Shown here one piece after another: positions 1,127 through 4,866 of a DNA stretch of 4,905 bases (positions are counted from its first letter, which is position 1; each line of letters starts with the position of its first letter). The notes below the pieces were generated by a model. It was not told the origin of the DNA. It saw nothing but the letters and a program-made list of their open reading frames with translations, and did not search any database. A program made the position numbers and the translations under genes. This DNA is from a virus (lineage: Duplodnaviria; Heunggongvirae; Uroviricota; Caudoviricetes). The stretch is taken from the IMG/VR virus record IMGVR_UViG_2724679172_000008; one strand, given 5' to 3'.

Positions 1127-1315
1127 TTATCCAGCCGGTGTTTCGTTATTCAGGTACAGCGATACTTTTTTTAGCGGGAGGCATTCACCAGAAATTTTTT
1201 GCTCGTCTCTTGCCTGGAGGCAGGATTCTTTACTTGCATAAATTCCGGTAATCACATTCTGTGATTCACCCGTTATAAGAAAAACCGTCATCATCAGTGC
1301 AAATGCTGAAGTCAT
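1127..1315 (-). CDS. Small protein (62 aa) with N-terminal hydrophobic helix; YdfD-like (Qin prophage small membrane/lysis protein) by size, position after dicB and N-terminal character
   Basis: Track ORF MTSAFALMMTVFLITGESQNVITGIYASKESCLQARDEQKISGECLPLKKVSLYLNNETPAG. Its ATG (1313-1315) overlaps the TGA of the upstream gene (1312-1314), the classic ATGA translational-coupling arrangement. AT-rich relative to flanks. The YdfD identification is from memory of the Qin dicB operon order, not a search. Confidence 0.55.
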   Translation of the reverse strand: MTSAFALMMTVFLITGESQNVITGIYASKESCLQARDEQKISGECLPLKKVSLYLNNETPAG

Positions 1316-1500
1316 TGACGTTCTCCGAAAATACCAAGTTCAAGAAGAGCAATTCGGGAAAGTATGGAATTATCATTGAGCAGATAAGGCTCATATTTCC
1401 TCATATTAATGGCATCTTCAGTAAACTCCCGGTTACTGAGCAGAACACCAATATCAAAACAACCTTCAGACGTATTAACGTTTGGTAATAACGTTTCCAT
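1312..1500 (-). CDS. dicB: DicB-family cell division inhibitor (62 aa)
   Basis: Translation METLLPNVNTSEGCFDIGVLLSNREFTEDAINMRKYEPYLLNDNSILSRIALLELGIFGERQ. The N-terminal half matches my recollection of E. coli K-12 DicB (M-TLLPNVNTSEGCF-IGV--SN--FTEDAIN); length is also 62 aa. GAGGA sits 7 nt upstream of the ATG (1498-1500). It lies immediately downstream of a DicF-like sRNA and an RNase III-type hairpin, as in the Qin dicB operon. Confidence 0.75.
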   Translation of the reverse strand: METLLPNVNTSEGCFDIGVLLSNREFTEDAINMRKYEPYLLNDNSILSRIALLELGIFGERQ

Positions 1501-1517
1501 TATCGCGTCCTCAACAA

Positions 1518-1674
1518 TGAATTTTGTGATGCAGTGCCTGGTGCCTCCAGGTGACGTTAACCAGTTAACAATTAACGCCGGGTTAGTTGATGCTCGTTAC
1601 GCCCGTAAAATACCGCCTTACTGCTTTAACTGTTCCGCGTGCGCATAGCCGCATTCACCGCATCACAAAATTCA
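1518..1674 (-). promoter_or_regulatory. Long hairpin between DicF and dicB: 19-bp inverted arms (1518-1536 and 1656-1674, 18/19 complementary) enclosing 119 bp; candidate RNase III processing site that releases DicF and sits 5 nt upstream of the dicB Shine-Dalgarno
   Basis: Arm 1 ATGAATTTTGTGATGCAGTG pairs with arm 2 CACCGCATCACAAAATTCA; I checked this base by base. The enclosed segment has further local dyads (CCTGG-TGCCT-CCAGG at 1537-1551, a twin GTTAAC). RNase III processing of the dicF-dicB transcript is established for Qin. Confidence 0.5.
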
Positions 1675-1678
1675 CTTT

Positions 1679-1736
1679 AAAAAGGGCGGCAGAGCAGTCA
1701 CGGAGTAAAACTGATACCGCCAAATGTCACCAGAAA
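1679..1736 (-). ncRNA. dicF: DicF-like sRNA (53-nt core, plus coordinates 1684-1736) with 3' GC stem (GGCGG/CCGCC) and U5 tract (1679-1683) acting as intrinsic terminator
   Basis: Minus-strand sequence TTTCTGGTGACATTTGGCGGTATCAGTTTTACTCCGTGACTGCTCTGCCGCCC followed by TTTTT. This matches my recollection of K-12 DicF at all but one position (A for G at position 12), which I cannot verify without a database. Context is right: dicB follows, with an RNase III-type hairpin between them. Confidence 0.7.
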
Positions 1737-1800: not shown

Positions 1801-2071
1801 TGCATTTTCTGGAGCAATGGAGGAAACCCCAGCCATACTTACCGCCGCGCCATTTCGCGGAGTGCCACAACCGGAAGCGCACGGTCGAACTAAATTTAAC
1901 GACACCGTACAGAGAGACCAATTTCGCCGTGCGCTTTCGCGTTATGCCCTGACTTTTCAGGGACATATCCTTTCAGTAAGCTGTCAGTGCCGGATGCTCA
2001 CCCGTGTCCGGCGCACGCACTCCACCTGACCCGTGGAGAACTCCTTAATTACCAACCCTCAGGAGGGTGAA

Positions 2072-2350
2072 ATGGATAAAAAGCAAATTGAGGCCCTGCA
2101 ATCTATTATTGAAGAACAAGATGAAGCTATCAGGATTCTTTCATATCGCACTGATATGATACTAAATATGCTTTCTGCATTAACGGCTGCGCTTGGTGGT
2201 ACAAAAACAAACGTATACCGCGAAGTTGTTATTCAACAGATAGATAAATTTGAAAAAACCATACCAGGTATTAATGCTCATCTTGCAGAACAAGAGAAAG
2301 ACTATGCTCTTATGGCAATTTCTTCAGTAGCTCTCCCGAAAGTTGAGTAG
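2072..2350 (+). CDS. Hypothetical protein, 92 aa; AT-rich accessory (moron-like) gene on the opposite strand inside the leftward operon
   Basis: ATG at 2072 preceded by a near-consensus Shine-Dalgarno (AGGAGG at 2061-2066, 5-nt spacer). Translation MDKKQIEALQSIIEEQDEAIRILSYRTDMILNMLSALTAALGGTKTNVYREVVIQQIDKFEKTIPGINAHLAEQEKDYALMAISSVALPKVE. Composition is visibly more AT-rich than the GC-rich region 1800-2030 just upstream. The track ORF begins at GTG 2033, but ATG 2072 has the RBS. I recognise no family. Confidence 0.5.
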   Translation: MDKKQIEALQSIIEEQDEAIRILSYRTDMILNMLSALTAALGGTKTNVYREVVIQQIDKFEKTIPGINAHLAEQEKDYALMAISSVALPKVE

Positions 2351-3060: not shown

Positions 3061-3101
3061 ATACCCATAGGTATTTAAAAAGTAAATACCCATGGGTAAA
3101 T
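3061..3101. promoter_or_regulatory. OL-like operator pair (ATACCCATAGGTAT at 3061-3074; ATACCCATGGGTAA at 3086-3099, core TACCCATGGGTA a perfect 12-bp palindrome) overlapping a candidate leftward promoter (minus strand -35 TTTACC, 17-bp spacer, -10 TAAATA)
   Basis: Direct reading. Both sites share the half-site ATACC/GGTAT with the sites between the repressor and cro-like genes; centre-to-centre spacing is 25 bp. They lie just downstream of the repressor stop and upstream of the leftward operon, the position of lambda OL/PL. Confidence 0.5.
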
Positions 3102-3140: not shown

Positions 3141-3560
3141 CTATGATGCGTTTTGTGCTTTCTTTTTACGGATTTCTTCGTAGATCATATTGTAATACTG
3201 TTTTTTCTCTTCAAGAGTTTTTAATAATTTATCCGCTTCACTTTCTGGCAGTTCGTCTAAGAGATCTAAAAAAATACGTTGTCGTGGCGTTAGAACCCTT
3301 GTTTCATAACTGGAGGCTGTGTTCGTTGATGATGAAACGATACCATCCATCCATCCCCGGGGTAACCCAAAGGACTCTTCGATAATCTCCACCATATCAT
3401 CAGCGATCCGTTTTTTTCCCTTTTTCCCCTCTGGGTACAACATTCTTGATACATAAGAAGGCTCGCGCCCGATCTTTCTGGCCACGTTAACCGCTTTACC
3501 ATCGCATTTCTCATCACGAATTTTGATGAGTTGCTGTCGTCTAAATTCATATTTGTCCAT
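3141..3560 (-). CDS. Prophage repressor, DicA/RacR-family HTH protein (139 aa), no LexA-type peptidase domain
   Basis: Translation MDKYEFRRQQLIKIRDEKCDGKAVNVARKIGREPSYVSRMLYPEGKKGKKRIADDMVEIIEESFGLPRGWMDGIVSSSTNTASSYETRVLTPRQRIFLDLLDELPESEADKLLKTLEEKKQYYNMIYEEIRKKKAQNAS. N-terminal HTH (AVNVARKIGREPSYVSRM); the C-terminal segment L-P-x-LPESE-D-L resembles my recollection of DicA. It is divergent from a cro-like gene and flanked by operator repeats. There is no Shine-Dalgarno upstream of the ATG. Confidence 0.75.
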   Translation of the reverse strand: MDKYEFRRQQLIKIRDEKCDGKAVNVARKIGREPSYVSRMLYPEGKKGKKRIADDMVEIIEESFGLPRGWMDGIVSSSTNTASSYETRVLTPRQRIFLDLLDELPESEADKLLKTLEEKKQYYNMIYEEIRKKKAQNAS

Positions 3561-3636
3561 AGGTAAATAATAGATGCGATTACCGCAAGGTAAACAACCT
3601 GTGGGTATTGACTTTTGTTTACCTGTGGGTATTCTT
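3553..3636. promoter_or_regulatory. OR-like control region with three operator copies and back-to-back promoters. Operators: 3553-3566 (weak, overlaps the repressor ATG), 3595-3608 and 3619-3632 (both ATACCCACAGGT on the minus strand, 24 bp apart). Rightward promoter: -35 TTGACT 3608-3613, -10 TATTCT 3630-3635. Leftward repressor promoter: -35 TTTACC (plus 3589-3594), 16-bp spacer, -10 TATTAT (plus 3567-3572)
   Basis: Direct reading of hexamers and repeats. Operators overlap the -35 and -10 of the rightward promoter. The repressor -10 ends 6 nt before its ATG, so the predicted transcription start is at or next to the A of ATG. Confidence 0.55.
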
Positions 3637-4352: not shown

Positions 4353-4374
4353 AAGCACGGTGTTCGGGGGTTTT

Positions 4375-4866
4375 ATGAGCAGCAAGCTTCATGGTCTTGT
4401 CTGGGAAGGGTGCGCCTTCACCGGCATGATCTTATCCAGGGTGGCGGTTATGGCCCGTCTTGCAGACTACAGCAATGACGAGGGCGTGTCATGGCCTGCC
4501 ATTGAAACTATCCGGCGTCAGATCGGTGCAAGAAGTGAATCCACAGTGAAATCGGCTATTGCAGAACTGGCGAAAGAGGGCTGGCTGACGAAGGAAGAGC
4601 GTAAGGTCGGTGGGCGTAATGTAAGCAATATCTATCGGCTTAATGTGGAAAAACTCGAAGCAGCTGCGGCGGCGGCGCGTGAGTCATATAAACCGAAAAG
4701 AAAAATTAGCCCGGCAAAAAATGACCCGTTAACAGTTGACCCGTCAAATATTGACCCCTCAACGGTTGACCCGTCAAATTTTGATGGATCAACTGTTGAT
4801 AAAAAACTGCCGATTAGGGGGGCGATGATTGACCCCGATCCGTCAGTATTAAAACCTGATCCGTGA
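4375..4866 (+). CDS. Phage replication initiation protein, winged-helix HTH_36 type (O-like); 163 aa from ATG 4375 (track start GTG 4360 gives 168 aa)
   Basis: The segment ARLADYSNDEGVSWPAIETIRRQIGARSESTVKSAIAELAKEGWLTKEE has the LAD-x-NDEG-x-WPS-x-TIA-x-G-x-S-x-TV-x-A-x-L pattern of HTH_36 replication proteins. The C-terminus is a DPxxV pentapeptide repeat region encoded by iteron-like DNA repeats. It follows the cII-like gene, the position of lambda O. Confidence 0.6.
   Translation: MSSKLHGLVWEGCAFTGMILSRVAVMARLADYSNDEGVSWPAIETIRRQIGARSESTVKSAIAELAKEGWLTKEERKVGGRNVSNIYRLNVEKLEAAAAAARESYKPKRKISPAKNDPLTVDPSNIDPSTVDPSNFDGSTVDKKLPIRGAMIDPDPSVLKPDP
4721..4810 (+). repeat. Six phased 15-bp repeats (iterons) inside the 3' end of the replication gene; four good copies carry the dyad TTGAC-CC-GTCAA, a fifth the variant TTGAT-GG-ATCAA, the sixth is degenerate; a further partial copy lies at 4829-4843
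   Basis: Copies start at 4721, 4736, 4751, 4766, 4781 and 4796 (ATGACCCGTTAACAG, TTGACCCGTCAAATA, TTGACCCCTCAACGG, TTGACCCGTCAAATT, TTGATGGATCAACTG, TTGATAAAAAACTGC). Embedding origin iterons in the initiator gene is established for lambda O. Confidence 0.55.

Follow-up and report, generated by a model that had tools for sequence, protein, structure and literature searches.

In phage T7 each of the R1-R5 signals is one hairpin with an internal loop, usually cut once; they lie between cistrons and divide the polycistronic phage transcript into mRNAs with defined ends. The leader of the lambda N gene carries an RNase III site in the form of a hairpin in a PL-type early transcript, just before the ribosome-binding site of the gene, and its cleavage reportedly alters the translation of the downstream gene, in that case through the N/nutL autoregulation. 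The closest described system is the spacer between the small RNA DicF and the gene dicB in the Qin prophage of Escherichia coli K-12. According to Balasubramanian 2016 and Ponath 2022 (PMC5069750, PMC9438474), both of which cite Faubladier 1990, DicF has two 3' ends: that of the main form, of 53 nt, is produced by Rho-independent termination, while that of a form of 72 nt is made by RNase III. A 2009 review includes the dicA-dicF-dicB intergenic region among the RNase III substrates, and Gordon 2017 (Table S1) lists at position 1649470, as 'intergenic dicF-dicB', a site with 26 reads in the rnc mutant and none (0/0) in the two wild-type replicates, annotated as 'Known: Yes', a count that stands in a table rich in low-count sites. 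Ragunathan 2023, on the other hand, mentions no RNase III cut other than the one upstream of DicF, from which a 190-nt precursor takes its 5' end. A paralogous arrangement, in which a DicF-like sRNA with its terminator precedes a division-inhibitor gene, is that of KilS and kilR in the Rac prophage (Bar et al. 2021, PMC8175672); for the KilS-kilR spacer, the literature yielded no report of a cut by RNase III.

The DNA analysed here, to which we refer as the window, is a stretch of 4,905 nt from a virus of the Caudoviricetes (IMG/VR record IMGVR_UViG_2724679172_000008), and it covers the immunity and the early region of a Qin/Rac-like prophage of lambdoid type. DicF, 53 nt long with its intrinsic-terminator hairpin, lies at 1684-1736(-), aligns to K-12 dicF (b1574) and matches the full Rfam model RF00039 at 1684-1735(-) with 77 bits, above the gathering score of 48; the U-tail of the terminator is read in the sequence at 1679-1683(-). 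The dicB coding sequence, of 62 aa, occupies 1312-1500(-) (Pfam PF05358, 125.5 bits), and its Shine-Dalgarno sequence GAGGA, read directly from the sequence at 1508-1512(-), stands 7 nt before the AUG at 1498-1500. Between the two, the first-pass annotation had pointed to a long hairpin with 19-nt arms at 1518-1536 and 1656-1674, and a repeat search reproduced those arms, their complementarity (18/19, 95%) and the 119 nt between them; the further dyads inside are present as well (P2 at 1637-1652, P4 at 1553-1579 and P5 at 1537-1551). A script that searched all 4905 nt for 19-nt inverted repeats with at most one mismatch and 3-200 nt of loop found no other, and an equivalent repeat, again with at most one mismatch, occurred in 0 of 30 shuffles. 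The lone mismatch, A1533:C1659 on the plus strand, becomes a U·G wobble in the RNA of the minus strand, in which G1675·U1517 and A1676-U1516 are added at the outer end; the resulting helix P1 has 21 contiguous pairs, two G·U among them, between the 5' arm AGUGAAUUUUGUGAUGCGGUG (1656-1676(-), from repeat search and fold) and the 3' arm CACUGCAUCACAAAAUUCAUU (1516-1536(-), from repeat search, fold and covariation). The distance of 5 nt from hairpin to Shine-Dalgarno was correctly given for the arm 1518-1536, and the extended helix ends 3 nt from GAGGA. The helix exists, and a chance match is ruled out; what had been described as a long stem is a 21-bp helix between DicF and dicB, yet it is no simple stem-loop, since it closes an RNA of several helices.

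In our opinion the repeat is, with good probability, the basal helix P1 of an RNA of about 160 nt in the DicF-dicB spacer of the leftward early (dicBF-type) operon of a lambdoid prophage, where RNase III cuts read-through transcripts. The K-12 Qin site is orthologous to it and occupies the same place, between the DicF terminator and the dicB Shine-Dalgarno. Both arms are present there, the 3' arm identical and the 5' arm with one base different (a C-G pair becomes U·G), and the same helix of 21 bp is formed in both prophages. The two spacers differ in length (183 nt in the window, 174 nt in K-12) and are 84% identical, the central region P3 being replaced; the window's prophage differs from Qin also in a divergent 3' part of dicB and in a different ydfD-like gene. 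If 72 nt, the length quoted in the papers that cite Faubladier 1990, are counted from the 5' end of K-12 DicF, the end falls after ...AAAGUGAAUUUUGU and before GAUG, midway along the 5' arm; it separates ...CCCUUUUUAAAGUGAAUUUUGU from GAUGUGGUG, 11 nt into the arm, and the alignment carries it to a predicted cut between U1665 and G1664 of the window (1664-1665(-)). Position 1649470 of Gordon 2017 maps 36 nt beyond DicF, just within P1.

As for the geometry of the cut, Altuvia 2018 describes an RNase III substrate of about 22 bp and an in vivo double-cleavage rule that expects a G-C pair between the two cuts. With its 21 contiguous pairs, P1 has the two helical turns of double-stranded RNA (about 20-22 bp) expected for double cleavage by RNase III, and from the same geometry the partner cut is predicted between C1526 and A1525 in the 3' arm (1525-1526(-)), which would leave a 2-nt 3' overhang. 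The pairs between the predicted cuts are U1665-A1527 and G1666-C1526, so that a G-C is present as the rule, in the form given above, expects. Support for the RNase III reading comes from the orthologue in K-12 Qin, for which it is already published: both the dependence on RNase III and the 72-nt end come from the literature on that orthologue, as quoted in the later papers, and the positions of the cuts in the window are derived from them. Processing in this spacer has, by those citations, been in the literature since 1990; the site was known, and the window adds a new allele of it. The first-pass annotation had also suggested that RNase III releases DicF. This agrees with the K-12 72-nt end and with the reads in the rnc mutant, but not with the 53-nt end, which is made by the terminator; since the main form takes its end from its own terminator, RNase III matters only for the transcripts that read through.

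The likeness to the lambda N leader is one of position, as the sequences are unrelated and the lambda effect is exerted through N/nutL, and by contrast with the single hairpins of T7 the element of the window is a junction of several helices, with a perfect two-turn helix as its closure. The position immediately before a toxic gene, together with the great stability of the helix, could also suggest a transcription terminator or attenuator governing read-through into dicB. However, no U-run follows the 3' arm, where the next sequence is UUGUUGAGGAC, a terminator scan was negative at that place, and the real intrinsic terminator, namely the DicF hairpin followed by U5, is found immediately upstream; we regard such a function as very unlikely. 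It has to be added that the simple scan misses the DicF terminator as well, because of its large loop, and its result is not evidence about DicF.

The fold of the minus-strand RNA 1745-1490 has a predicted energy of -87.5 kcal/mol (z = -3.5, 0/200 shuffles as good), compared to -68.4 kcal/mol for the plus strand (z = -1.8, 10/200 shuffles as good). In the minus-strand fold P1 closes a junction that holds, from 5' to 3', the hairpin P2 (GCGGCUAUGCGCACGC, 1637-1652(-)), which fold and alignment identify as conserved core, the variable central region P3 (1580-1636(-)), with a closing helix of 3 bp in fold and alignment, the hairpin P4 (1553-1579(-)), with 8 bp and the loop UUGUUAACUGG, and the hairpin P5, CCUGG-AGGCA-CCAGG (1537-1551(-)), recognised in the alignment. 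The alignment comprises 30 sequences from E. coli, Shigella, Citrobacter, Klebsiella, Raoultella, Enterobacter and P1-like phages, and on it RNAalifold predicted P1-P5 with 23/38 pairs compensatory. When five pseudoknot pairs, discussed below, are included, 93.5% of the cells are paired, against 34-41% if the partners are slid by 1-3 columns, 25/43 pairs show changes on both sides, and the covariation score reaches 0.342, compared to 0.06-0.08 with slid partners. Compensatory pairs amount to 11/17 in P1 and to all 8 in P4, and the central pair of P5 is divided equally between U-A and G-C (15 sequences each). The sequences had been gathered with a 19-base core pattern inside P2, which misses more divergent relatives; P2 is invariant because the search pattern lies in it, and for this reason it holds no covariation information. 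The outer P1 of Klebsiella, Raoultella and Citrobacter is wholly different in sequence (e.g. CAGACCUUGCAAUGCAGUG) and nonetheless measures 20-22 bp; the P1 duplexes have 21-26 bp and about -30 kcal/mol, compared to -9 for shuffled arms, and their length suits the RNase III substrate of about 22 bp. Among 44 long stems, G·U combinations outnumber A·C by 71 to 7, from which it follows that the dicB-sense RNA is the strand under selection and that a symmetry at DNA level is ruled out. Selection acts on the RNA of the dicB-sense strand, and it conserves the length of the helix.

The same data bear on the idea that the repeat works in the DNA, as a cruciform or as a palindrome bound by a dimeric protein, for example an operator. 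A long and nearly perfect pair of arms, with GTTAAC motifs inside, is what may recommend it; but the arms stand 119 bp apart and covary, with no recognition sequence conserved, both the G·U/A·C asymmetry and that of the folding energies of the two strands are unexpected for DNA symmetry, and the operator-like palindromes of the window are elsewhere, at 3062-3098 and 3597-3633. A role in the DNA is accordingly given very little credit.

Within the RNA, the junction segment CAGUUAA at 1626-1632(-) is perfectly complementary to UUAACUG at 1562-1568(-), in the loop of P4, and the two are probably the strands of a pseudoknot. A perfect 7-mer complement to the P4 loop was present in 94% of 82 unique elements, compared to 3% of shuffles, and divergent classes have other complementary 7-mers in its place, AAGGUUG/CAACCUU, which was scored, and UGGUUAU/AUAACCA, which was read by eye. 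Two further observations concern the same region. A Shine-Dalgarno-like GGAGG at 1544-1548(-) spans the stem and the loop of P5 in 29/30 aligned sequences, the remaining one having GGAAG, and no start codon was found at a usable distance after it. Moreover, the single-stranded 5' region of DicF, GGUGACAUU (1723-1731), is complementary in 8/9 positions to the P4/P5 junction AACGUCACC (1550-1558); the K-12 counterpart of this match is 9/9 (GGUGACGUU), which could be due to chance, at about 3% per perfect 9-mer.

As to the distribution of the element, 4642 of the 5426 complete E. coli genomes have homologous spacers (median 2 places per genome, maximum 9), as do 45 phage records, and the 19-base core pattern retrieved 39 loci in species-representative genomes and at least 120 in viral contigs. 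About six chance matches to the pattern, in unrelated MAGs (L013, L014, L019, L022, L028, L035), were discarded, as the rest of the element was absent from them. Every copy examined was in the same syntenic early-operon slot of a prophage or phage, or in the ban operon of P1 type. Repetition in the genome and inverted termini are the two features that a miniature inverted-repeat transposable element would share, and a 157-bp unit of this kind, inserted between DicF and dicB, had been ranked by the first-pass annotation below the RNase III site. That ranking was right: none of the copies sampled was dispersed outside prophages or phages, and target-site duplication was lacking, the flanks showing no direct repeat (AAAG... 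versus ...UUGU). Instead, the copies share one operon slot, as just described, and their number matches that of multiple lambdoid prophages, of which K-12 has two, Qin and Rac. Furthermore, the arms vary between genera and stay complementary, whereas termini recognised by a transposase would be conserved, and the ratio of G·U to A·C denotes a strand-specific selection at the RNA level. We therefore consider a mobile element almost certainly not to be the explanation.

The genes that follow the fold are various. Among the matches listed, it stands directly upstream of dicB in about 60 occurrences; in Rac it precedes kilR, after the DicF-like sRNA KilS, and P1 is there made of 10 bp, a bulged A and 10 bp; in P7, D6 and P1-like plasmids it is upstream of terB/tciA in the ban operon; and it is also found before a gene of the Rha/Ash family, small membrane peptides and ORFs without Pfam assignment. 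A specificity of the element for cell-division inhibitors had been considered and was dropped, the Pfam families of the downstream ORFs being mixed (DicB, KilR, TerB, Rha/Ash, unknowns). In 31 of about 160 occurrences among the matches listed, the fold lies immediately before a DicF/KilS-like sRNA with a terminator, and not after it, in another class of prophage (e.g. L011 at 1376-1598, L045, L048, L072), and nearly all the other occurrences among these matches have a Shine-Dalgarno and an ORF downstream, the few exceptions being chance matches to the pattern. The closing helix of the copies that precede DicF/KilS-like sRNAs has 9-10 contiguous pairs, or 16-20 bp by duplex prediction, and that of the P1-phage copies has 9-15 bp by duplex prediction; the occurrence of these shorter helices indicates that a helix of the size required by RNase III is not universal to the fold. 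As a separate observation, about 110 nt before the element the ban operon of P1-like phages has a tRNA-like sequence, at 2229-2313(-) in phage P7 (L003) and at 2231-2317 in D6 (L004); that of P7 scores 46.6 bits on the tRNA-Sec model, whose gathering score is 47, and that of D6 is annotated as tRNA-Ser(UGA).

The nearest family in Rfam is STnc100 (RF02076), with its relative PasD. The element of the window matches the STnc100 model with 31.1 bits (E = 5e-4), below the gathering threshold of 47, and ten of its relatives score 28-45 bits, all under 47; cmscan, which gave only this one STnc100-like match in the window, aligns the full model. The likeness extends to the closing helix (...GGUG/CAC...), the AAU junction, the first hairpin, a hairpin with a conserved loop and the hairpin CCNGG-AGGCA-CCNGG. 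By contrast, STnc100 and PasD belong to the late region, from Q or stx to the lysis genes, a context that was not found here: the element of the window is in an early, leftward operon, and its closing helix is much longer.

This kinship raises the question of whether the element is an autonomous RNA of the STnc100/PasD type, either an Hfq-associated sRNA or a domain that binds a protein or the ribosome, of which P1 would be no more than the closing helix and for which RNase III would be incidental or would serve for excision only. Several observations fit such an RNA. Every variant matches the STnc100 model, the core (P2, the junctions, the P4 loop and P5) is far more conserved than P1, a pseudoknot is probable, and some copies have shorter closing helices, of about 9-20 bp with 9-10 contiguous pairs; in addition, PasD and STnc100 have been reported as prophage sRNAs, PasD with RIL-seq targets. 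Against it, no score is at the gathering threshold of 47 bits, and in the enterobacterial prophages P1 has 20-26 bp in front of every ORF, more than the fold needs. Moreover, in the K-12 RIL-seq tables, where dicF, ydfC.dicF and sieB.kilR do appear, no RNA of the dicF-dicB spacer is listed, a weak argument as the operon is repressed there. Taken on its own this explanation appears unlikely; it overlaps, on the other hand, with the reading of P1 as an RNase III site, of which it may be a complement and not an alternative. It would account for the core, whose strong conservation goes beyond what recognition by RNase III alone explains.

If P1 is the RNase III site of the spacer, the course of events in the operon could be the following. 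Most transcripts would end at the DicF terminator; the RNA that reads through would fold P1, and the RNase III of the host would cut both strands in the middle of the helix, at the two positions predicted above. The cleavage would part the ydf-DicF RNA, on the upstream side, from the mRNA of dicB and ydfD; the former would give rise to the 72-nt isoform of DicF, a core of about 139 nt (1664-1526) would be excised, and the dicB mRNA would keep a leader of about 25 nt. A scan revealed no promoter-like site within 1300-2100 and so no internal dicB promoter.

The consequences for dicB depend on the vicinity of the helix to the Shine-Dalgarno sequence. In the predicted fold of the spacer alone, P1 is extended past a bulged G1515 by seven weak pairs, of which a 4-bp version is seen in the longer fold, and this extension would join the DicF U-tail with the adjoining AA (1677-1683) to UUGAGGA (1508-1514), which includes the dicB Shine-Dalgarno; such pairing is confined to the dicB type and shows no covariation. 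Since the uncut helix ends 3 nt from the Shine-Dalgarno and the U-tail can pair with it, cleavage would most likely relieve an occlusion of the dicB ribosome-binding site. Nearly as plausible is that the cut destabilises the dicB mRNA through the new 5'-monophosphate end, and Gordon 2017 observed faster decay after RNase III cleavage at most sites. That the stem may modulate the translation of dicB, as had been proposed at the outset, can reasonably be inferred. We note also that the tail of the 72-nt DicF could remain annealed to the dicB leader after cleavage.

Some features in the neighbourhood deserve mention. Upstream of DicF, a second hairpin at 1875-1935(-) (AAGCGCACGGCGAA...UUCGACCGUGCGCUU), placed by homology to the 5'-end region of the K-12 190-nt precursor, is stable and conserved with K-12 Qin. 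A species of 190 nt that ends at the DicF terminator would begin near 1873, where the hairpin has its 3' foot, in agreement with the RNase III cut reported for the 190-nt DicF precursor. In Rac, KilS (L007, NC_000913.3 1417800-1420200, at 606-711) scores 39-41 bits on the Rfam DicF model and is thus DicF-like, and its annotated 5' end falls in sequence homologous to this upstream RNase III hairpin of Qin. The 'kilR-sieB' site 1418510 of Gordon 2017 was considered as a cut in the Rac copy of P1 and rejected, as it maps 8 nt upstream of the 5' end of KilS, in the other hairpin; the position of that end in the homologous hairpin, with an rnc-dependent site close by, suggests that it may come from processing and not from a promoter.

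As regards the rest of the window, the identity with E. coli 118UI amounts to 98.6% over 1396-2711 and to 94% over 1-1088, and for 1089-1395, where the ydfD-like gene lies with the 3' two-thirds of dicB, blastn gave no match in 118UI or in K-12; judged from these alignments, the dicB allele is recombinant from about codon 35 onward, with the mosaic joint at 1089-1395. The stop codon of dicB and the start of a 62-aa ydfD-like ORF (1127-1315) overlap by 4 nt (1312-1315), which suggests translational coupling. The repressor gene at 3141-3560(-) is flanked by two pairs of operator-like repeats, 3062-3098 and 3597-3633 (ATACCCATRGGTA; on the other strand ACCTGTGGGTATT), which probably stand at the leftward (dicBp-like) and at the rightward early promoter, and a sub-threshold Rfam match to 'mir-2041' at 3062-3098 corresponds to the operator-like palindrome. 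Within the ORF of a replication protein (4360-4866(+)), four or five TTGACCCGTCAA-like repeats spaced by 15 nt, at 4716-4797, look like origin iterons inside an O-like gene, and this array accounts for a sub-threshold match to 'mir-250'.

DicB and DicF are toxic inhibitors of cell division, retained by most E. coli genomes, and the post-transcriptional restraint of their expression is only partly understood. For the allele of the window the practical value of this analysis lies in exact cut coordinates that can be tested. What is new, compared to the known RNase III site, is that P1 closes a multi-helix RNA of about 160 nt with a probable pseudoknot, that this RNA is akin to STnc100 and PasD, and that it forms a cassette placed before varied cargo in enterobacterial prophages and P1-like phages. 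Three RNAs that bear separate names are linked in this way, which suggests that they share a role in processing or in regulation. We put forward only tentatively, as a possibility we would not bet on, that P1 is the excision helix of an early-operon subfamily of STnc100/PasD, a portable, pseudoknotted cassette of about 140 nt and several helices, with the GGAGG-bearing hairpin invariant, from which RNase III frees a functional and stable core RNA. If this were true, the released core could be a trans-acting sRNA, a decoy for the ribosome or a protein, or a gate on the translation of the downstream gene, and the half-helix left on the 72-nt DicF could remain paired to the dicB Shine-Dalgarno. 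The cassette would then stand before accessory genes that are often toxic to the host, such as dicB, kilR, terB/tciA, rha-like genes and those for small membrane peptides.
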